This document shows, piece by piece, positions 51,734 through 61,040 of a stretch of 64,000 nucleotides of DNA (the first letter of the stretch is position 1; every line of letters begins with the position of its first letter). The translations under genes and the position numbers were made by a program. Source of the stretch: Gemmatimonadaceae bacterium (GTDB taxonomy: Bacteria; Gemmatimonadota; Gemmatimonadetes; Gemmatimonadales; Gemmatimonadaceae); NCBI GenBank assembly GCA_045803545.1, contig JBJMOW010000005.1, forward strand, positions 1,248,001 through 1,312,000, given 5' to 3'. Under the pieces are notes generated by a model that saw only the letters and a program-made list of their open reading frames with translations, did no database searches and had not been told where the DNA came from.

Positions 51734-52519
51734 CTAGATGTGAAGCCCCATTAATTCCTCGAGCTTTTCAAACCTGCTGCGGGAAACCTTGAGCCTCTGT
51801 CCGCCCTTCAGCACCACCGCGTAATCCCCACCGGGATTGCGGATCAAGGTCTCGACGAGATCGAGTCGCACTATTGCGGAGCGATGGATGCGGAAGAATT
51901 TCCCGGGATCGAGGCGGTCCTCGAGCGTCTGCATCCGCTCCCGTATCAGGTAGCGCTTGTCGGCGACAAACAGCTCCGCGTACGGTCCGCTGGCGATCAT
52001 ATAGTCGATCTGCTTGACCGGCACCACACGCACCTGGCCTTTCATCTCTACCGCGATGCGCTCGAGGTACTGGGTCTTCGGCGCCGCTTTAGCTTCGGAG
52101 CCTCCGAGTAGGCTGCGCAATTCGTCGGAAAGCTTCGAGACCTGATTGAGCTCGATCATCTTCCGCGCTCGACGAAATGCCTTCTCGAATCGCTCGTCAT
52201 CGAAGGGCTTGACCAGGTAATCGAGCGCGGCAAGATCGAATGCGACGACAGCGTAGTCGTACGCCGTCGTGAAGATCACCGGTGGCATATCGTCGACGCC
52301 GATCTCACGCACGACGTCGAGTCCGGTTTTGCCAGGCATTTGGATGTCGAGGAAAACGAGATCGGGTTTCAGCTCACGGATCGCTTCGACCGCAGTCAGG
52401 CCATTGTCGGCGGTGCCAACGATCTCGACACCATTCTCGTGGGCGAGCAAATCCTCCAGTCGCTGGCGACTGAGCTTTTCGTCTTCGGCGATCAGTACAC
52501 GCAGTGGCTTGGCGCTCAC
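51734..52519 (-). CDS. LytTR family response regulator
   Basis: Receiver DLVFLDIQMP, FTTAY, DYLVKP; LytTR FFRIHRS and VSRSR. Confidence 0.95.
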   Translation of the reverse strand: MSAKPLRVLIAEDEKLSRQRLEDLLAHENGVEIVGTADNGLTAVEAIRELKPDLVFLDIQMPGKTGLDVVREIGVDDMPPVIFTTAYDYAVVAFDLAALDYLVKPFDDERFEKAFRRARKMIELNQVSKLSDELRSLLGGSEAKAAPKTQYLERIAVEMKGQVRVVPVKQIDYMIASGPYAELFVADKRYLIRERMQTLEDRLDPGKFFRIHRSAIVRLDLVETLIRNPGGDYAVVLKGGQRLKVSRSRFEKLEELMGLHI

Positions 52520-53757
52520 TGACTGGCCTGAGATTTAGTCACCAGCACCGTGCGGAGCTCCGCGGAAGTGCGATACGGAACCGCGATTCTCGCGATGGTA
52601 CCGCCGCCGGCCGCTTCCGTGAGAGCGAGGCTCTGCTCACTACCATACATCTGCTCCAGACGTTGCCGAGTGTTGGCGAGTCCGACTCCCGCGTCATCGA
52701 GTCGAGCGATTTTCGCAGGGCCGGGACCGTTGTCGGTGACAGTGAGCACGAGTCGTTCCCCTTCGACTCGAGCACGAATCCCGATTTTGCCCGCTGCCGC
52801 GATTTTGTCAACGCCGTGCTTGACCGCGTTCTCCACTAGCGGCTGCAGTATCAAACTGGGCACCATTGCATTGCGCGCGTCATCCTCGATCTGCATGTCG
52901 ATCTCCAGCTTGCCCTGAAACCTGACCTGCATGATCTCGAGGTAGCGCTCGAGGAAAGAGATTTCCTGCGATAGCGGCACTTCGTGATCGGTACCGCCTT
53001 CGAGGGTATACCGCAGCAGCTCGCTGAGGCGGGCGATCATGCGGCGTACCCCACGCGGATCGCGCTCGACCAGTGACGACACCGCGTTCAACGTGTTGAA
53101 CAGAAAGTGCGGATTCAGCTGCGCGTTGAGAGCCGACAACTTCGCTTCGGCGAGCTGCGTTTGGAGTTGAGCCGTTTCGGCCGCCATCTGCGCGGCGGCT
53201 TTCTCGTGGGCGCGGAATCGACGCGAATATTCGCGCGCGAAACCGGCGGCCAGGATGCCGCAGAATATCAGGAAGTGATTGAGGATCATCGGGCCGTGGA
53301 AGAAATTCAGCGGCGAGCCACCCCCGAGTCCGCGCCGAACCCCGCCTCCACGTTCTCCACCGCCGCCAAAACGCCCGACACCACCCGGCGCTCCTCTGCC
53401 GCGATCCGAACCCTGGAGGGTCTGTATCAGCGATGAGTTGATCAGGTCGACAAAGAAGGCAATGACAAGTCCGATTGCGATGAGCGCCAGGATCCTTGTC
53501 CATGGTGGCGACTCGATAACGTTGAACCGGCTGACAAGCCAGAAGAGTGGCGGTGTCAGCAGCGCCCACAGATACATCTGCTGGAATGCCAGGGCGATCG
53601 GCACCGCGGTTGGTACCGCGGTGAAGCCTTCGCGCTGATCGGCGAGTCGATTGGCGGCGGTTAATATCGCCAACAGAGTCCAGAACGCGAAGATCCCGAA
53701 AATCTCTACGCCACTAAGTCGGAACCGTTTCTCTGCGGCTGGGGATGCTTCGCTCAT
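52516..53757 (-). CDS. LytS-type sensor histidine kinase
   Basis: TM helices; AQLNPHFLFNTLN, LQPLVENAVKHG, DNGPG, GVGLANTRQRL. Confidence 0.95.
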   Translation of the reverse strand: MSEASPAAEKRFRLSGVEIFGIFAFWTLLAILTAANRLADQREGFTAVPTAVPIALAFQQMYLWALLTPPLFWLVSRFNVIESPPWTRILALIAIGLVIAFFVDLINSSLIQTLQGSDRGRGAPGGVGRFGGGGERGGGVRRGLGGGSPLNFFHGPMILNHFLIFCGILAAGFAREYSRRFRAHEKAAAQMAAETAQLQTQLAEAKLSALNAQLNPHFLFNTLNAVSSLVERDPRGVRRMIARLSELLRYTLEGGTDHEVPLSQEISFLERYLEIMQVRFQGKLEIDMQIEDDARNAMVPSLILQPLVENAVKHGVDKIAAAGKIGIRARVEGERLVLTVTDNGPGPAKIARLDDAGVGLANTRQRLEQMYGSEQSLALTEAAGGGTIARIAVPYRTSAELRTVLVTKSQASQ

Positions 53758-53834: not shown

Positions 53835-53998
53835 TGTCGAGAAACATTTGGGCGGTGAAACTCGCTTGTGACGTCTACGTGCAGACTATGACTGCGCGGT
53901 GTAGTTCGTGACAACGAAGGCGAGTGAACAACAACGGTGTGTGTCAGAAGCAAGTAGAGAGATCAGAAAGCATTCTAACACACAACCGGTTCACTAAA

Positions 53999-54334
53999 AT
54001 GTCACTCGCCTTCAAGACCACCGACGCTCCTTCGCACCAGCCGCCCAGACTCTCCACGCTCGAAGCGACGCTGCGCGGCTATTTCGTCGCCGCATTCACC
54101 GGCGCCGACAAGCCCGATTGGGCGTTCCGCGCAGCTGTCTGGAACGTGACTGACGACCTCAAGATGATCGGCGACAAACCGGAGGACGTTATCAAGCGGA
54201 TCAAGTACATCGCCGCCATCCCCGTCGCGTTTCACTACCGAGTCGGCTACCGCGAGAGTCAGTCGAGGCTGACTCACACTGTATCGAAGGCGACTGCGAT
54301 CGCGATCGACCGATACTTCGCGGCCAACGTCTAG
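53999..54334 (+). CDS. Small helical hypothetical protein
   Basis: RAAVWNVTDDLK..GDKPEDVIKRIK...AIDRYF, same pattern as 37196-37498. Confidence 0.65.
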   Translation: MSLAFKTTDAPSHQPPRLSTLEATLRGYFVAAFTGADKPDWAFRAAVWNVTDDLKMIGDKPEDVIKRIKYIAAIPVAFHYRVGYRESQSRLTHTVSKATAIAIDRYFAANV

Positions 54335-55173
54335 TTGCCGTTGAGAGCAGCCGCGACGTCGCTCAGGGTCCGGAATCCACGCTGCTGCTCGCGAGTGAAC
54401 TCTATCCGAAACTCCTCCTCGACGGCCATCATCAGCACGACCAGATCGAGAGAGTCGATACCCATCTCGAGGAGCGAGGCGTCAAAGCGGATTTCGGATT
54501 CGTCGCGACTGAGCGAGTCTGCGGCGAGGCGACGCAGGCGTTGCTCGACTGAATCGGGTGCGACGCGATGCGGACCGACCACCTGCTCGAAACAATGGGC
54601 GTACTGCTTGAGTCCGTTGTACACCTCTTCGTCGACGCGCTTGAAACGATCCATCATCTCGTCGACGACAGCCTGACCATTCGCCGCGGCGTAGGCGTCG
54701 AGCCGGTCTTTCACCCAGCGAATGTGTCCGGTTTCCTCCTCGATCAACTGCTGAAGCGTGCGCTTGACCTCGGGATGGGTGCCTGGCCAGGACAGATGCG
54801 CGCGGAAATGTCGAACTACTCGCCGCTCGAACACCTGCGTCAGCGCCAACACCTCGAGCAGGTTCGTGGGATTACCGACTGCCGCGTGATATCGCGCTTG
54901 ATATGTCTCTCTTACCTTCTTTGGAGTGCCACCGACTCTCTGAATGCACTGGGTCCAGGCCCACGCGTGCCCCGCCTCTTCCGCGCAGTGCTCGGTGAGC
55001 CGCACACGCAAATCGTCGTCATCGGTCTCACGCGCGAGCCGTCCCATCAGCAGTCCGCCGGCAAGCTCGGACTCGCGATAGTAGCTGAGTAGCCACAGCT
55101 CGTTCTCACTGATCTCCAGCTTGCCCGGCGTCGGTGGCTCGTATGAATGTGCGACAGCAATTGAGCTAGCCAT
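54331..55173 (-). CDS. Ferritin-like diiron protein fused to a C-terminal acyl carrier protein
   Basis: ESELAG / EEAGH / VFERRV / EETGH give an E-ExxH-E-ExxH ligand set; ACP motif LEMGIDSLDLVVLMMAVEEEFRI. Confidence 0.88.
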   Translation of the reverse strand: MASSIAVAHSYEPPTPGKLEISENELWLLSYYRESELAGGLLMGRLARETDDDDLRVRLTEHCAEEAGHAWAWTQCIQRVGGTPKKVRETYQARYHAAVGNPTNLLEVLALTQVFERRVVRHFRAHLSWPGTHPEVKRTLQQLIEEETGHIRWVKDRLDAYAAANGQAVVDEMMDRFKRVDEEVYNGLKQYAHCFEQVVGPHRVAPDSVEQRLRRLAADSLSRDESEIRFDASLLEMGIDSLDLVVLMMAVEEEFRIEFTREQQRGFRTLSDVAAALNGN

Positions 55174-55891
55174 TGCTCATCTCCTCCATCAAATGCTCCG
55201 TCGGCGAAAGGCCGCAGAGCTGTCGGATCTTCCGGTTCATCGCCATGATGGCGTCGAAATCATTTTCCTCGGCGTGCGGAATTTCGACAACGTCGCTGCC
55301 GTAATGCCGAAAGTTTTCAGCGGCGCTGATGATCTCCGGCACAATCGATCGATCAGCGTCTATTCGCTTCCTGAGCAATGCACCAGCGCCGGCGCTGTGA
55401 CGAAGCTCGTCCCTGCTCATGTAGTCCATCAATTCGGCAAGCACCGGCTCGCGCGTTTGCGCAGCAATCCGCCTGAAGAAATGCGCGGCGAACAGCTCGG
55501 AGCACATGAAGTGGGTCAGGTACGTTACCGCCGAATCGCGATCGTACTGGATCGAGCTGGTGCGACCGCGCGCCTCGACAAGGTCGCGCACACTCGACTT
55601 GCTGCTCTGATCTCCAACGGTATCCAGATATCGCCGCAGCGCGGTGTAGTGCTTGAGCCCCTCGTAAAGCTCCAGACTTAGAATCGCGGTGGCGTCGACG
55701 TCGTCCCACAACATGAGCATCAGGCGCGGTGCAAACGTCGGCAGATAGCCCTCGATAATCGCCGCATCGCGCAGACCGGCGTGAATCTCGGCTTCGTCGC
55801 GGGCGATCCGGTGGTCGATCGCTCCCCAGCGGATGCTGTCGATCGACCATGCCGACGATTCGGCAGCACGCAGATGCTCCTCGTAGATCAA
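55166..55891 (-). CDS. Ferritin-like (acyl-ACP desaturase/AurF-like) protein
   Basis: WSIDSIRW, IIEGYLP, YEGLKHY, CSELFA, SRDELRH. The TTG start overlaps the upstream stop (TTGA) after GAGAGGGGA, so the longer 56104 start is unlikely. Confidence 0.8.
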   Translation of the reverse strand: MIYEEHLRAAESSAWSIDSIRWGAIDHRIARDEAEIHAGLRDAAIIEGYLPTFAPRLMLMLWDDVDATAILSLELYEGLKHYTALRRYLDTVGDQSSKSSVRDLVEARGRTSSIQYDRDSAVTYLTHFMCSELFAAHFFRRIAAQTREPVLAELMDYMSRDELRHSAGAGALLRKRIDADRSIVPEIISAAENFRHYGSDVVEIPHAEENDFDAIMAMNRKIRQLCGLSPTEHLMEEMSNG

Positions 55892-56754
55892 TGTCCCCTC
55901 TCTGCAACGGCGAGCGTCTGCAAGCCAACGGTGTCGTTCGTCGTCCGCACACTGGTGAAACCAGCAGAGGTCAGAAGCGCTCTCAGCTGTTGAGTTGAGC
56001 GATAGTGCGTATGAAGCTCGGCGAGCTCTCGCGCGAGATAGTCGGAAACCCGATCGCGGTTCATCGCCGAGGTTATGAAACGGCCGCCAGGCCGCAGCGC
56101 GCACAACGCGCGGCGATAGAAATCGTACAGGATCCCGTCCGCGAGAAATTCTCCGAAGCCGAGTGACACGATGACGTCAACACCGGTTGGGATAGTGCCA
56201 GGTTTCAGCGCATCGCCACAGCTGAACTCGAAGGACTGATGTCCGTCGATGAGCTTGCGCGACAACGCCAACGGCTCCGGATCGATGTCGATACCCATGA
56301 ACGTCGTGCGCTCATAGCGACCGGGATCGCTGCGCCGCAGCGTCTCCGCGACGTCGAACAGATCGCGCGCGATGCCGCACGGAATCGAAACGACGGTGAG
56401 CTCCCGATCATCGTCAATCGCCTCGATCGCACGCATGATCTCCAGGCGGGAATGGAGGAAGCGACTACGCATCGAGCGCGAGCCTTTGAGCTTGAGCAGC
56501 AAGCGATCGAGCATCCGGCCAACGCCAAAGCGTCCGCTGGGCTCATTTCTGTAGATGTGATCAGCGAAGCGGAAGCTACCCGAGTTTCTGATTCCCTCTC
56601 GCGCGAGATCACTGGTCGTCAGCAAGGCGTAGACGGGGAGCAGGTGATACTTCCCCTCCGAGACCAATCGGCGTGGAATCGAGGCCGACCGGCGCGTGCG
56701 ATTGGGCAGCGCCGCGATTGGCGTCGCAGTCAGTTCATGCTGTGGCCGAGACAT
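55888..56754 (-). CDS. Class I SAM-dependent methyltransferase
   Basis: VVSIPCGIARDL (motif I), GIDID, GDAL, VSLGFGEFL, ALRPGGRF. Confidence 0.88.
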   Translation of the reverse strand: MSRPQHELTATPIAALPNRTRRSASIPRRLVSEGKYHLLPVYALLTTSDLAREGIRNSGSFRFADHIYRNEPSGRFGVGRMLDRLLLKLKGSRSMRSRFLHSRLEIMRAIEAIDDDRELTVVSIPCGIARDLFDVAETLRRSDPGRYERTTFMGIDIDPEPLALSRKLIDGHQSFEFSCGDALKPGTIPTGVDVIVSLGFGEFLADGILYDFYRRALCALRPGGRFITSAMNRDRVSDYLARELAELHTHYRSTQQLRALLTSAGFTSVRTTNDTVGLQTLAVAERGH

Positions 56755-57865
56755 CGTTCCTCACTGTCGAAGGCCAATTCCGTTCATCGGCACCGTGTTG
56801 ATTCACGATAGCGATCACCCAGCGCTCCCAGCCGAACGCAACGCAGCCGGTGTTGGCAGGCTGGCCGGAGTCGAGCTTGATGCGGAATGCCTTGCCGAAG
56901 TGATCGTGATGGTTGTTGAACGATGCGGCGGCGATCGTGCGCCCGTCGTCGCTGGCGCGCAGCCTCAGCTCGTATTTGAGCGGCAGTATCTGCTGCATCA
57001 ACATTCTTCCGCGCGACTCGGCGGTGAAAAACGGATCGTTTGCAATCTCGATAGCGCCATCGAGTCCCAGCTCTTTCGTCCAGGCGTGGACGCGCATCAT
57101 CAACTCGCCTCGCACCATTTCAACTGTTTGTGGTGTTCCCACGGTGATTATCTCCCGCATCGTGAACTCACGCAGTCTCTCAACCGCAGTGGGTGATTGC
57201 TCCTCGAACTCGTTCCGGAAGCACCGGCCGAGCGCAGTCACCATGGAGCCAGATGCAGTAACCGTGCAGTCAGAGAGAGTTGGATAGTGGTGGTAGCAAA
57301 CAGCGGGGGGTCTAGCGTTCTCACCATTGCGAACGAGTTTCTCGGGAAATGCCGATAGAAACCCCGCGCGATCGAGGGATGACAGCGAGATGTCGTCCGG
57401 GAAGGCGAGTCGGGTAGCGCCGAGGTGATCGGCCCAGTCGCAAACAGTGGCATCGAGCCAATCACGCAGTTCGGCGACTGCTCCGTGCAACACCAGGGCC
57501 CCCTGACCAGTCAGCTCGAGATCACCCTTTGCGATCAGCCTCCCGACCGGGGAGCCGGACGTCTCCGTGCGAAGAGTGCCGCGCCGGCGAGTGGTCGACC
57601 TTCTGGTGATCGACTCGACACCAGTGAAAACCCGGGCGATCGTCTCGATCGACCTGAAATTGGCGAGAACGATCTGCGAATCGGGAATCTTGCGGTCGAG
57701 GGTGGATTGCAGGAACGCGATCAGCTCGAGGATCTTGAGCGAGTCGATGACCTGGTCCTCGAACAGTCGCGTTTCAGCGGTGATCGAAGGCGCGATCTGA
57801 CCATCCGCCAGCTGTTCGCGGACGAAGCATAAAAGGCGCTGCTCGAGCTCGTGGGCGGTCAACAT
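56735..57865 (-). CDS. Carrier protein fused to a SerRS-like amino acid:[carrier protein] ligase
   Basis: N-terminal VIDSLKILELIAFLQ carrier domain; PAVCYHHY, motif 2 GRCFRNE, LREFTMRE, ANDPFF, LKYEL, SFNNHHDHFG, motif 3 TGCVAFGWERW; no tRNA-binding arm. Confidence 0.88.
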   Translation of the reverse strand: MLTAHELEQRLLCFVREQLADGQIAPSITAETRLFEDQVIDSLKILELIAFLQSTLDRKIPDSQIVLANFRSIETIARVFTGVESITRRSTTRRRGTLRTETSGSPVGRLIAKGDLELTGQGALVLHGAVAELRDWLDATVCDWADHLGATRLAFPDDISLSSLDRAGFLSAFPEKLVRNGENARPPAVCYHHYPTLSDCTVTASGSMVTALGRCFRNEFEEQSPTAVERLREFTMREIITVGTPQTVEMVRGELMMRVHAWTKELGLDGAIEIANDPFFTAESRGRMLMQQILPLKYELRLRASDDGRTIAAASFNNHHDHFGKAFRIKLDSGQPANTGCVAFGWERWVIAIVNQHGADERNWPSTVRNDVSATA

Positions 57866-58980
57866 TGACGTGTCCCCCAGTTGCTCTCGAGGCAGTACTT
57901 CACGACTCGCGGATAGAAATCGAGCGACGGCTGCGGCGCGATGCCGTTGCCCGCCAGGGTGGCCGTTGCCCGATCGGTCTCGAAAACCTTGGGATGCGCG
58001 AGCTGATACGCGAACGTACGAATCGATCTCGTTGCTTCGCGCAGCACTGGATTCCCTGTTTCCTCGACGGATTTGACGAACAACTCGTACGTATCGAGAT
58101 CGACGATCAACGGTTTCTCGACTGCTCGCTTGCGCCACTGGGGCCGGTACGTCGCGATCGCGCTCATCGTCTCGTCGATGATTTCGCCGAGCGTATTGCT
58201 CGATTCGCGGCCCGCCGCGAGGTGGAAGACCCCGGGACGCGCTGCGTGCTCCGCCAGGTGCAGCACAGCCTCGGCGACGAAGTCAGAGCTGACGATGTCG
58301 ACCGGCTCGTTCGGATCGCCGGGAATCATCGGCGCCAGACCGCCATAGAGGAGCCTGACCGCGTGGTGGATGGTATTGAAGTGCGTCACTCTACCGGTAC
58401 CGGAATCTCCGATGACTGTGCTCAACCGCACCAGAATCAGCGGAAGCTCCGACATCGAGGCGCTGATCATGTCCTCCATCTCGGCTTTCGATTCCTCATA
58501 CGAGTTGACGAAGCCGAGTCCTGCGTCGCCGAAATCGGACTCGGCGAAATCGCCACACCGCTTGCCGCTGACATAGACGGTGCTCAGGAACGCGCCGCAC
58601 TCGAGCGCTGGACAGTGCCGCGCGAAATCGAGAACGTTGCGACTGCCGTCGACATTAGCCCTGCGCGCAGCAGTGATCGGAAGTGTGAATGACGTCGAGC
58701 CAGCGGAGTGAATGATGTGGGTCGTGTCGCGTTGCAGATGAACCAGAGCATCAGCGCGAACGCCAAGGTCGGGCCCGGCGCCGATGTCGCCTTCGACGAC
58801 ATCAACGGTCGCGCTGATGTCTGCATAAGCGAGCAATGAGCGCACGCGCTCGATAGGATCACTGTCGCTGCGGCGGACGAGGACTTTTACGGCGAGACCT
58901 TCCCGTGCCGCGAGTCGACGCAGCAGGTCGCTGCCAATCGCGCCCGTTGCACCGGTGAGCAGAATTGACGCGCGTCGCAT
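57859..58980 (-). CDS. Extended SDR, thioester/fatty acyl reductase type
   Basis: LLTGATGAIG, IIHSAG, ANVDGSRNV, LSTVYVSG, NSYEESKAEME, RLSTVIGDS.TG. Confidence 0.88.
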   Translation of the reverse strand: MRRASILLTGATGAIGSDLLRRLAAREGLAVKVLVRRSDSDPIERVRSLLAYADISATVDVVEGDIGAGPDLGVRADALVHLQRDTTHIIHSAGSTSFTLPITAARRANVDGSRNVLDFARHCPALECGAFLSTVYVSGKRCGDFAESDFGDAGLGFVNSYEESKAEMEDMISASMSELPLILVRLSTVIGDSGTGRVTHFNTIHHAVRLLYGGLAPMIPGDPNEPVDIVSSDFVAEAVLHLAEHAARPGVFHLAAGRESSNTLGEIIDETMSAIATYRPQWRKRAVEKPLIVDLDTYELFVKSVEETGNPVLREATRSIRTFAYQLAHPKVFETDRATATLAGNGIAPQPSLDFYPRVVKYCLESNWGTRQC

Positions 58981-59966
58981 CAGTGCTGCACCACCATGCT
59001 CGCCCAGTTCGATCCGTACCCGAACGTGAACAGCAGCATGTAGTCGCCTTTCTTCACCAGCCCGGCGTCGGTTGCGTGCCGCAGGTTGAGCAGGTTGTCC
59101 GACGCGATGGTGTGGCCGACTTTGGAGATGTTAGCGGTGTAAATCCGGTCAGCGGGGCATTTGATCAGCCGGCCCAGTATCTCCCAGCTGCGCAGCGACA
59201 CGTTGTGTGGAATGACTGCTGCGATGTCGTCGATGGTCAGGCCCGCATTCTTCAGCGTGCGCTCGATCAGCGCCGCCGCAGTCGGGAAATACGCGGCAAT
59301 AATCTCGTTCTCTATGGTGTCGCTATCCCACAGCGCGCCTTTCGTCACATGACCGCACTCGACGATTCTGTTTCGCTGGGCGCCGCGTCGCACCAGTGCG
59401 GCGCACGCACCGTCCGAGACGAGATTGTAGGCAAGGTCCCGCGGCTGGTCAGGCGGGAACTTGTCGGCGCTGACGCAGAGGATCGCGTTGAGATTGTCTT
59501 CGGTCGAGATCAATGCGCGAGCCATGCGTAGCGCGGCAAATATCGATGCACAGCCGACCTGGTTGACGCCAACGACCGCGGCGTTCGGAAGATCGAGACG
59601 GGTCTGCAGCACCGACCCCGGGTATTTGAAAAGGTCATGGACGTTGCCGAGGTCGAGTACCGATCCCGGACGGGAGACGCCGTTGCCGTTCCAAAGCGTA
59701 GAGCTGGAGTTGAGCGCGGCGGCGTAGAGAATCATGCCGATGTCGTCGCGATCCACATCGCTTTCTGCGAGCAGTTTCTCGGCGGCGGCGACGGCCATGT
59801 CGAGATTCGACTCCTCACCCGCCAGATGGACGGTCTCGAATCCGAACGAGCGCAGCGTCAGTCCCGATCGATTAAGGAGCCCGCGCGCACCGAGCTCCGC
59901 GACCGTAGCAACGCCCGGCGGCAGGTACTCAGCGATCGATTCGATTCCGATTTGGCGCTTGCTCAT
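58980..59966 (-). CDS. 3-oxoacyl-ACP synthase III (FabH)-like protein, non-canonical
   Basis: QVGCAS catalytic Cys, SDGACAALV, IPHNVS, VGHTIASD (His where FabH has Asn), FGYGSNW. Confidence 0.88.
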   Translation of the reverse strand: MSKRQIGIESIAEYLPPGVATVAELGARGLLNRSGLTLRSFGFETVHLAGEESNLDMAVAAAEKLLAESDVDRDDIGMILYAAALNSSSTLWNGNGVSRPGSVLDLGNVHDLFKYPGSVLQTRLDLPNAAVVGVNQVGCASIFAALRMARALISTEDNLNAILCVSADKFPPDQPRDLAYNLVSDGACAALVRRGAQRNRIVECGHVTKGALWDSDTIENEIIAAYFPTAAALIERTLKNAGLTIDDIAAVIPHNVSLRSWEILGRLIKCPADRIYTANISKVGHTIASDNLLNLRHATDAGLVKKGDYMLLFTFGYGSNWASMVVQH

Positions 59967-60029
59967 GGCGAGATTCTACCCTGCGCTTCAGTACGGCGGG
60001 ATACGTACAGTGACGTAGCTGGGATGCAG

Positions 60030-60578
60030 TTAAGCCTTCATATGAAGGGTTGGGAACGAGCTTCCGAATTGTTTACTGAATAATGAACGGATCAAACCTC
60101 CTTTCTTCGATCGTTCCGCTCCTTTGAACCGCACGACGTGCCCAGGCAGCGGCCAGCCGAGATTTCCAATTGCAACGCGGTTCCTGTGGATTCCGGCGAT
60201 CATCTCGATCTCGCCGCATTTCACTACGTGCTCGCTTCCCCGCCGACTACTGAAGGACCGCGTCTGTACAAAGCAGCGCTCGAGAATCTCCGTCGCTTGC
60301 TGGTGAGTGATGCCAACGAGCAGCCATCGCCGCCGCACCCAGAGCGCGATCACGATCAACGCGACGTCGAAGATGACTATTGAGATCGGCAGCACTCGCG
60401 CACCAGGGCCGCTGAGCGAGCCACGCTGAGTGAAACCATGGATGATTGTCGCCATTACAAAGATGCCGTTGACGACCACGAGGGAGCTTCCCTTCCATAG
60501 TGTAGGCGACGGGCGACGCGCGATGATCAGCGCCCACGCCACGAGCACCAGCGCATACGCGCCAAGCCACGGCAGCAT
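60030..60578 (-). CDS. Hypothetical membrane protein
   Basis: Three hydrophobic helices followed by a soluble tail. Confidence 0.65.
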   Translation of the reverse strand: MLPWLGAYALVLVAWALIIARRPSPTLWKGSSLVVVNGIFVMATIIHGFTQRGSLSGPGARVLPISIVIFDVALIVIALWVRRRWLLVGITHQQATEILERCFVQTRSFSSRRGSEHVVKCGEIEMIAGIHRNRVAIGNLGWPLPGHVVRFKGAERSKKGGLIRSLFSKQFGSSFPTLHMKA

Positions 60579-60605: not shown

Positions 60606-61040
60606 CTACTCCTCGAGCAGCGCTTTCAGATTCTCGACGACGCGCTTGCCTTCCTGCTCGTTGAGCTTCTCGAACATCGACGCTTTCATTTTTCCGAGCG
60701 CGTTGGTCGGCACTTCGTAGTCGACGTTGAGACTGAGCCTGGTTCTGGGCCCCGCTCCGTCAGCCTTATAGGTGAAGGTGCTTTTGGCGCCAGTTGTGGT
60801 TTTGTAGACGAACTCTTTTGCGGGCACGAAGCGAACGGTTTCGGCCTTTCCGGTCAGCTCGACGCCGGCGATGTTGTAGACCCAATCCCAGCTGGTGCCG
60901 GGCGTTCTCACATCACCTTTGACGTTGGTCACCGACTTGAGCGGGCCGATGAATGCCGGGTGATTGGTGACGTCGACGATGTACTCCATCAGGGAGTCGG
61001 GCGTGCACTTTACTTCGACGGACTGGGCGACTCTGGTCAT
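60606..61040 (-). CDS. SRPBCC (polyketide cyclase/START-like) family protein
   Basis: QSVEVK..P..LMEYIVD.TNHPAF, beta-strand series and C-terminal helix VENLKALLE. Confidence 0.85.
   Translation of the reverse strand: MTRVAQSVEVKCTPDSLMEYIVDVTNHPAFIGPLKSVTNVKGDVRTPGTSWDWVYNIAGVELTGKAETVRFVPAKEFVYKTTTGAKSTFTYKADGAGPRTRLSLNVDYEVPTNALGKMKASMFEKLNEQEGKRVVENLKALLEE

Follow-up and report, generated by a model that had tools for sequence, protein, structure and literature searches.

Bll0957 and Atu2573 (PDB 3mey and 4h2w) are amino acid:carrier protein ligases that possess a SerRS2-like core without a tRNA-binding domain, a zinc-binding Cys-Glu-Cys triad and an MRE motif, and that are adjoined by their cognate carrier. 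A 2022 review describes the biological purpose of amino acid loading by such ligases as unknown (PMC9437257), and their function is regarded as an open question (PMC9437257; PMC5370406). Here we analysed a gene cluster in which a ligase sharing these features is fused to its carrier and embedded in a full release-and-tailoring line. The cluster lies on the minus strand of a 64,000-nt stretch of DNA from a Gemmatimonadaceae bacterium (GenBank assembly GCA_045803545.1, contig JBJMOW010000005.1, positions 1,248,001–1,312,000; hereafter, the window) and encodes a ketosynthase III (KS III)-fold enzyme, an extended short-chain dehydrogenase/reductase (SDR), the carrier–ligase fusion, an S-adenosylmethionine (SAM)-dependent transferase and two diiron proteins. 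We propose, at a probability of roughly 0.45, that it is a stand-alone thiotemplate line in which an amino acid would be loaded, acylated, oxidised, reductively released and SAM-capped to yield an acylated amino-alcohol lipid, on the simplest reading one of the N-acyl-ethanolamine, -alaninol or -serinol kind. The proposal rests on the acyl-transfer triad of the KS, the thioester-reductase type of the SDR and the lipid-handling accessory genes of relatives.

Parts of this logic are found in other described pathways. Myxalamid (MxaA) and columbamide/serinolamide biosynthesis combine an acyl chain, a small amino acid and reductive release to give an amino alcohol, and the logic of columbamide biosynthesis includes dimetal oxidases and methylation. 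The SDR of the cluster is nearest to the reductase (R) domain of MxaA; unlike those pathways, however, the cluster has neither a nonribosomal peptide synthetase (NRPS) nor a type I polyketide synthase, and it uses a class II synthetase homologue as the loader, a KS III as the coupler and non-CylC oxidases. A carrier-bound small amino acid, a diiron enzyme and a SAM methyltransferase are shared with the fragin (ham) pathway and, as far as excerpts of the literature describe them, with the glycine cassettes of enteromycin, akazaoxime and althiomycin. All of these systems use NRPS adenylation–carrier (A-PCP) units and AurF-type enzymes, whereas the window oxidases lack the third His of AurF. Tetronate cassettes (FkbH, an acyl carrier protein (ACP) and the FabH-like RkD/Mad16) likewise possess a small-unit loader, a carrier and a stand-alone KS III that, according to excerpts of two papers, joins two carrier-bound units, as proposed for the cluster KS (PMC7489565, PMC5724707). 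The cluster differs from them in that its loader is an amino-acid ligase and an intact reductase follows; every gene of the window unit has an assignment other than FkbH, no search directed at FkbH having been made.

Gene content and conservation of the cluster

An earlier note on this DNA had described six minus-strand open reading frames (ORFs) that overlap their neighbours by 1, 7, 20, 4 and 8 nt, and re-reading of the window confirmed this layout. The bounds that it had set (54331..59966) were too narrow, because the unit reaches upstream to 61040 and includes two more genes:

58980..59966, minus strand: KS III-fold enzyme with Cys139, His254, His285 and Asp290, probable acyltransferase (328 aa)
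57859..58980, minus strand: extended SDR, similar to a stand-alone thioester-reductase (R) domain (373 aa)
56735..57865, minus strand: fusion of carrier 1 (residues ~1–85, Ser42) with an amino acid:carrier protein ligase that has a SerRS2-like core (376 aa)
55888..56754, minus strand: class I SAM-dependent transferase, Methyltransf_20-like (288 aa)
55166..55891, minus strand: diiron protein 1, acyl-ACP-desaturase homologue with Gly78 for the first ExxH Glu (241 aa, TTG start)
54331..55173, minus strand: diiron protein 2, with four Glu and two His, in fusion with carrier 2 (Ser241) (280 aa)
60606..61040, minus strand: SRPBCC/START-fold protein, probable lipid-binding or trafficking partner (144 aa; Pfam Polyketide_cyc2, E 3.7e-12)
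60030..60578, minus strand: small membrane protein with about three hydrophobic stretches by hydropathy (182 aa)

Pfam and NCBIfam label the six core proteins, in order, as KS III, NAD_binding_4, PP-binding plus tRNA-synt_2b, methyltransferase, weak ferritin-like, and ferritin-like plus PP-binding; these labels match those of the earlier note, but most family scores are below the curated cut-offs, which marks every one of the proteins as a diverged representative of its superfamily. The GC content at third codon positions is 0.72–0.78 in the six genes. A recent island or an artefact was rejected in view of the GC content of the locus (0.603), which is similar to that of the genome, and of the synteny of the upstream flank in a relative (L071). 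Close homologues are labelled Gemmatimonadaceae.

A KS profile search gave 133 relatives in a one-genome-per-species collection and 522 in metagenomes, of which 80 each were analysed; 74 of these 160 loci extend at least 6.5 kb beyond the KS start (long loci). The earlier note had named a lack of conserved co-occurrence in other genomes as something that would refute its reading. The order KS–SDR–carrier–ligase–diiron 1 was found in 74/74 long loci, the methyltransferase gene in some cases separating the last two, and diiron 2 is present in all but L119 and L129 (72/74). This shared order goes beyond chance. As the loci are related and partly redundant, these counts show conservation, not independent events. 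The NRPS-free carrier-protein line recognised earlier is thus conserved, and the catalytic residues of its ligase, KS, SDR and diiron 2 are intact. Both carriers have the DSL motif, and each is fused to an enzyme (Ser42 in the third gene, Ser241 in the sixth), as had been reported; the serine is kept in 76/76 relatives of carrier 1 and 17/17 of carrier 2. The absence of a phosphopantetheinyl transferase (PPTase) and an exporter holds inside the six genes, but a PPTase gene stands beside the KS gene in 28 of the 80 genome loci and MMPL proteins are encoded in relatives; the window genome has a PPTase gene on another contig.

The hosts of the 80 genome loci are mostly Gemmatimonadaceae (Gemmatimonadota, 71; Acidobacteriota, 5; Myxococcaceae, 1), and no cultured host was identified among these records, which are all metagenome-assembled or unidentified. 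In phylum samples that include the centre genome, the cluster occurs in 6/93 Gemmatimonadaceae genomes and 0/307 of other families, in 4/301 genomes of the phylum of the acidobacterial carrier and in 2/401 of that of the myxobacterial carrier; none of eight genomes of the same genus has it. A housekeeping lipid pathway was rejected because of this patchy distribution (6/93, 0/307, 0/8), and the cluster is an accessory, conserved gene set. A ligase-based tally of 71/301 mixes the cluster with other ligases, includes an unpublished genome (G134) and supports no other claim. Among 40 loci gathered by ligase similarity, 27 had the cluster and 13 had none of its other genes, and identity with a canonical Bll0957-type operon was rejected accordingly. 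Two copies (L067 and L068) contain many frameshifts across all genes, which are probably assembly errors rather than signs of pseudogenes.

Plasmid searches gave KS matches at 22–31% identity only, in different clusters, and no matches with diiron 2 or with a distant KS as the query. One such different cluster is carried by a cultured organism, on the Bacillus mycoides plasmid NZ_CP031072.1 (L248:2357-16829) beside uvrA/uvrB; it encodes several KS III-like proteins, one with the same PHN/GH..D motifs as the cluster KS, a carrier, an amino acid:carrier ligase, BtrH-like proteins, an ATP-grasp protein and adenylating enzymes.

Exactly one SAM enzyme, never two, is encoded in 73/74 long loci, and it belongs to one of three unrelated families: the window-type methyltransferase (43 loci), DUF3419 (28) or the ICMT/PEMT family (2), with none in the remaining locus. 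The methylation step suggested earlier is kept inasmuch as a methyltransferase gene is present, with the refinement that this slot is swappable among relatives. Form A, that of the window, combines the methyltransferase with carrier 2, the SRPBCC protein and the small membrane protein. Of 29 methyltransferase-type loci with more than 1.5 kb of flank on both sides, 28 have the SRPBCC gene (upstream, divergent or downstream), which is found in 0/21 DUF3419+MMPL loci; the small membrane protein, which matches no Pfam or NCBIfam family above cut-off and of which 12 homologues were aligned, was detected in 14 of the 29 and, being divergent, may be under-counted. In an acidobacterial version, an acyl-CoA dehydrogenase gene follows a free carrier 2. 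Form B has DUF3419, tandem GNAT, MMPL and often a radical SAM protein, with neither carrier 2 nor SRPBCC. A distant form (L244 and L254) encodes an acyl-CoA-ligase-like protein, ICMT, KS, an AurF-family protein, carrier, ligase, SDR, diiron 2 and carrier; its variants are L245, which is truncated, and L246, which has no ligase in the cluster, and the acyl-CoA-ligase-like gene leads all four. One acidobacterial genome (G303) holds two cluster versions (L103 and L247); in L247, the second carrier is fused ahead of diiron 1, and the surroundings showed no SAM enzyme. Its fusion to diiron 2 in the window and, in L247, to diiron 1 ties carrier 2 to the oxidases.

The accessory genes of relatives include an acyl-CoA-ligase-like gene, an acyl-CoA dehydrogenase gene beside carrier 2, and genes for MMPL, an Aas/PlsC-like acyltransferase and a membrane desaturase. 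They suggest the lipid-type product that had been put forward. The membrane fatty-acid desaturase gene faces the cluster end in three loci (L090:15758-16552, L093:15686-16483 and L211:6493-7272). Full form A also occurs, followed by a gene for an acyltransferase (in L112 Aas/PlsC-like and placed after carrier 2, with a counterpart in L095), in two genomes of 1.0–1.1 Mb (L095:233-7941; L112:2982-10692, adjoining secA), whose listed order members measure 0.5–0.9 Mb; the KS was found in none of 120 other genomes of this order. Searches for the FabB/F, FabD, carboxyltransferase, AMP-ligase and ribosomal protein L30 families found no member in either of the two genomes, for which completeness is not given. 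Marker absences of this sort are typical of candidate phyla radiation (CPR) bacteria, which the hosts look like; mis-binning is possible. The presence of the whole cluster in genomes without detected fatty-acid synthesis genes fits acyl transfer better than malonyl extension.

Catalytic residues of the encoded enzymes

The ligase has Bll0957 as its best solved relative (E 5.2e-35) and a 276-aa class II SerRS-like core without a tRNA-binding domain, the N-terminus being the carrier domain; the cognate carrier is thus provided in the operon by fusion (Ser42, 76/76). Its residues Cys190 (73/73), Glu238 (73/73) and Cys341 (72/73), which we take to be the zinc ligands, and Arg217 (73/73) and Arg348 (72/73), presumably the motif 2 and 3 arginines, are conserved. 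Unlike Bll0957 and Atu2573, it scores below the NCBIfam cut-off (171 bits against 357 for the best match, PRK07080, amino acid--ACP ligase) and lies on a separate branch. In a quick, midpoint-rooted tree of 88 rows (cluster ligases longer than 200 aa plus 15 others, without Bll0957 and with some outgroup labels assumed), the cluster ligases split from the acyl-CoA-dehydrogenase/DUF1839-type ligases of the same bacterial family (SH-aLRT 100). The ligase alignment gave no indication of amino-acid specificity. Two other ligase contexts were observed. Canonical operons in Gemmatimonadaceae consist of genes for a carrier, acyl-CoA dehydrogenase, ligase and DUF1839, after which comes a gene for glycoside hydrolase family 2 (L060:7702-13686, L062, L063 and L065). 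In a third context (L056:6301-12143), genes for a GNAT, ligase, carrier and hexapeptide acyltransferase stand amid polysaccharide biosynthesis genes, which suggests aminoacylation of a surface polysaccharide.

The KS residues Cys139, His254, His285 and Asp290 are all present in 80/80 genome loci, with His285 at the Asn position of the Cys-His-Asn triad of FabH. The KS III-like acyltransferases ChlB3 and CerJ have a triad, Cys113/His296/Asp301 in ChlB3, that the Cys, the His and the Asp at His+5 of the cluster KS match, as far as the excerpt of PMC9573744 allows the comparison. Since the triad is of this type and not that of FabH, acyl transfer is likelier than chain extension, and the enzyme probably acts as an acyltransferase; joining by a KS III, as the earlier note had it, is refined to the acyl-transfer type. 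Cys, His and Asp are kept in four distant KS variants, in which His254 is replaced by Gln (L244–L246) or lost (L247). Unlike ChlB3 and CerJ, the window KS keeps His254, as DpsC does, and its acceptor would be an aminoacyl-carrier. Identity with a tetronate synthase was set aside, as a supposed likeness of motifs did not hold up in comparison with solved relatives; PDB 5by7, which we take to be the tetronate synthase AbyA1, matches weakly (E 1.5e-4).

The SDR matches Pfam NAD_binding_4 (E 1.2e-39), and its best solved relative is the R domain of MxaA (E 3.3e-15), which reportedly releases N-acyl alaninol. Tyr161 and Lys165 are kept in 75/75 relatives and Thr134 in 73 (Ser in two), and GxxGxxG is present in all 40 rows that cover the motif. 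The score for the thioester reductase family TIGR01746 is 98.9, below the cut-off of 213.35.

Diiron 1 (model pLDDT 94.8) shares its full-length fold and sequence profile with the castor stearoyl-ACP (delta-9) desaturase (Z 19.0, rmsd 3.6, 238 residues aligned) and Mycobacterium DesA2 (E 5.6e-16, aligned to WTAEENRH). Other R2-like folds gave Z 17 and AurF Z 14.1, and Foldseek gave no match at E<=0.001. Glu47, His81, Glu132, Glu162 and His165 are invariant. Unlike in the desaturases, which have two complete ExxH motifs (four Glu, two His), the first ExxH Glu, which corresponds to an iron-bridging residue of the castor enzyme, is replaced by Gly78; moreover, diiron 1 is paired with a second, shorter ferritin-like protein. 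Position 78 is Gly in 61, Ser in 4 and Glu in 2 of 67 genome copies, and Ser in 18, Gly in 12, Ala in 2 and Glu in 2 of the 34 metagenome copies that include the motif (a further copy being truncated), so that the Glu is replaced in 97/101 copies (Gly 73, Ser 22, Ala 2) and kept in L095, L112, L159 and L163. His196 is conserved in 64/67.

Diiron 2 is a four-helix bundle with all four Glu and both His (Glu36 56/56, Glu66 55/56, His69 55/56, Glu116 55/56, Glu147 52/56, His150 56/56). Its ferritin-like fold is closest to an uncharacterised protein and to aldehyde-deformylating-oxygenase-like and PaaA-like proteins (best Z 18.3–15.9), and its carrier domain matches PP-binding at E 2.1e-11. The earlier description of two diiron proteins therefore stands in full for diiron 2 and with one canonical metal ligand missing for diiron 1. 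Neither contains the third His of the AurF motif HxxDExxH (Ile/Met/Leu at position 158 of diiron 1, Leu143 in diiron 2), nor the CylC motifs QExxH and HxxDExxH. A recent duplication of the two genes was rejected (profile–profile probability 9.7%).

Proposed assembly line and its rivals

In the proposed line, a PPTase encoded elsewhere would arm both carriers, and the zinc-dependent ligase would load Gly, Ala or Ser onto its fused carrier 1, a function established for the family elsewhere. An acyl chain on carrier 2, or as acyl-CoA, may be oxidised by both diiron proteins, most simply by desaturation or hydroxylation. The KS III, standing in for an NRPS condensation domain, would move the acyl group via Cys139 to the amine, or to the hydroxyl formed later, of the amino-acid unit, as its Cys-His-Asp residues suggest. 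The SDR with NAD(P)H would free the thioester as an aldehyde or alcohol, the SAM enzyme would cap a heteroatom, with methyl in the window and possibly with aminocarboxypropyl in DUF3419 forms, and the lipid may be moved by the SRPBCC and membrane proteins or by MMPL. We take DUF3419 to be the BtaA family. An excerpt of PMC10491745 describes BtaA as an aminocarboxypropyl transferase.

Several observations weigh against this line. Among solved structures, the KS is most closely related to FabH enzymes and not to ChlB3 or CerJ, the matches to which (E 5.6e-17 and 1.1e-13) are confined to its C-terminal third; His254 is retained in all 80 main-group loci, and DpsC, with Ser-His-His, does condense according to an excerpt of PMC9573744. 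The DUF3419 forms lack carrier 2 and carry tandem GNAT, and if the latter is an N-acyltransferase, the KS has a different role there. An AurF-family protein replaces diiron 1 in four distant loci, and the three that were aligned carry the extra His. As the ligases form their own branch, the substrate is not transferable from Bll0957; diiron 2 is missing from L119 and L129, the L246 cluster has no ligase and a one-query search of its genome found none, and the completeness of the two small genomes is not established.

The AurF-family replacements bear on an alternative, unlikely in our view, in which the diiron proteins oxidise the amine of Gly- or Ala-carrier 1 to a hydroxylamine, oxime or nitronate that is O-methylated by the SAM enzyme, then acylated and released by the KS and SDR, in a logic like that of enteromycin/althiomycin or fragin. 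The fragin and PVF clusters likewise have SRPBCC partners, and the proteins in the diiron 1 slot of L244–L246, which match the AurF family at E 2e-32 to 3e-26, contain HxxDExxH, the L254 gene being 55% identical. A precedent, described in an excerpt of PMC9967187, is the conversion of carrier-bound glycine by a diiron oxygenase and an O-methyltransferase to an oxime or O-methyl nitronate. However, both window proteins lack the motif, diiron 1 is nearer to acyl-ACP desaturases than to AurF (Z 19.0 versus 14.1), and it is to carrier 2 rather than carrier 1 that the oxidases are fused; nor does HxxDExxH settle the matter, since CylC halogenases also have it, according to an excerpt of PMC12101540. 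It is rather improbable that the KS makes a C-C bond without pyridoxal phosphate, condensing an oxidised carrier-bound extender of the aminomalonyl or nitro/oximino-acetyl type with the acyl chain, so that reduction by the SDR would give a sphingoid-like amino diol whose amine is methylated in the window form or GNAT-acylated in the DUF3419 form. Bacterial ceramide synthase is a GNAT, and the tandem GNAT weakly resembles N-myristoyltransferase (E 5.6e-4). The Cys-His-His of the KS is retained in 80/80, and the matches of the methyltransferase to phosphoethanolamine N-methyltransferases (E 8e-8) and of the ICMT-slot protein to PEMT hint at a free amine, but the former are limited to the generic SAM-binding core. 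Moreover, His254 is dispensable in distant variants, a single SDR would have two reductions to carry out, of the ketone and of the thioester, and most forms lack the dehydrogenase pair of aminomalonyl-ACP pathways.

Two further readings are improbable. The activated unit may be passed to a protein or envelope polymer instead of a free lipid, or the ligase may load a non-amino acid; the L056-type ligases, amid polysaccharide genes with a GNAT, lie on the same side of the tree, and the L246 cluster has no ligase. Against these stand the intact catalytic residues of the reductase, the SRPBCC/MMPL partners, neighbour families in which no gene for an acceptor or glycosyltransferase recurs, and the intact zinc triad for amine binding. 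Diiron 1 might also be a new radical halogenase or anion-transfer enzyme with chloride at its opened site, giving a chlorinated N-acyl amino alcohol, the class to which columbamide-type cyanobacterial lipids belong. The replacement of one ligand by three different small residues in 97/101 copies, with the other five invariant, suits such an enzyme, as does the example of SyrB2, which binds chloride at the site of carboxylate loss, CylC and NocO being proposed to do likewise in an excerpt of PMC12101540. Against it, the CylC motifs are absent, the Glu is kept in L095, L112, L159 and L163, whose clusters are otherwise equivalent, and the site could be occupied by a substrate carboxylate, water, Glu77 or His196.

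Flanking elements and significance

Two elements precede the KS gene:

59973..59978, minus strand: TAGAAT, -10-like box that precedes the KS ATG by 6 nt, of a leaderless type as judged from the sequence
60002..60017, minus strand: TACGT-N6-ACGTA, conserved element and probable regulator site, recognised by enrichment in relatives

The leaderless-type promoter noted earlier is favoured by the position of TAGAAT and the lack of a Shine-Dalgarno sequence, but was not listed by a sigma-70 scan; similar boxes were seen by eye a few nt before the KS start in close relatives. TACGT-N6-ACGTA, 24–39 nt upstream of the -10-like box, is perfect in 16/73 and has at most one mismatch in 28/73 upstream regions (controls, 3/2101 and 6/2101), and some relatives have three half-sites ~11 bp apart. 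The genome contains eight perfect copies, seven of them outside predicted genes and often ~23 nt before a -10-like box (the others at C1:14239, C2:369588, C4:1350480, C5:38773, C5:58808, C5:147690 and C6:253108). As these precede unrelated genes, the element is a wider regulator site, not specific to the cluster, and gives no functional clue; it is likely an undescribed Gemmatimonadota regulator site. Directly downstream of the cluster are a convergent ORF of ~120 aa (53972-54334, plus strand) with no Pfam or NCBIfam match and, on the cluster strand, a LytS/LytTR two-component pair (51734-53757), which is absent among the recurring neighbours.

The earlier note had not recognised the gene set as a characterised cluster, and our full-text literature search, which left subscription literature largely uncovered and excluded supplements, found no description of it. 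The cluster is a new arrangement of known parts, each in a known superfamily, with a logic that mirrors NRPS and stand-alone thiotemplate lines. Its significance is limited by a product that is inferred and by the lack of an identified cultured host. One further idea, tentative and as a whole unlikely, is that the cluster makes, by a modular route, amino-alcohol membrane lipids that contain neither phosphorus nor glycerol; in this route, the ligase and KS III would replace NRPS adenylation and condensation domains, the opened-site desaturase-like diiron protein would perform chemistry new to its fold, and the swappable SAM enzymes would determine whether the head group is methyl or a betaine-lipid-like homoserine ether. 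If this were true, a complete copy that brings its own acyltransferase would enable CPR-like organisms with ~1-Mb genomes and no fatty-acid synthesis to convert the acyl chains that they scavenge into their own lipid. It has been proposed that amino acid:carrier protein ligases link ribosomal with non-ribosomal peptide synthesis, and the cluster would offer this long-orphaned family of tRNA-synthetase relatives a testable job: as the ligase is fused to its carrier in a compact, conserved unit of 6–8 genes that is expressible whole, the question of its role can be put directly to the test. Further gains would be a KS III that serves as an amide or ester synthase without an NRPS, a desaturase-fold enzyme whose metal site is systematically opened and, for the soil phylum Gemmatimonadota, which is abundant and chemically unexplored, a first product class.

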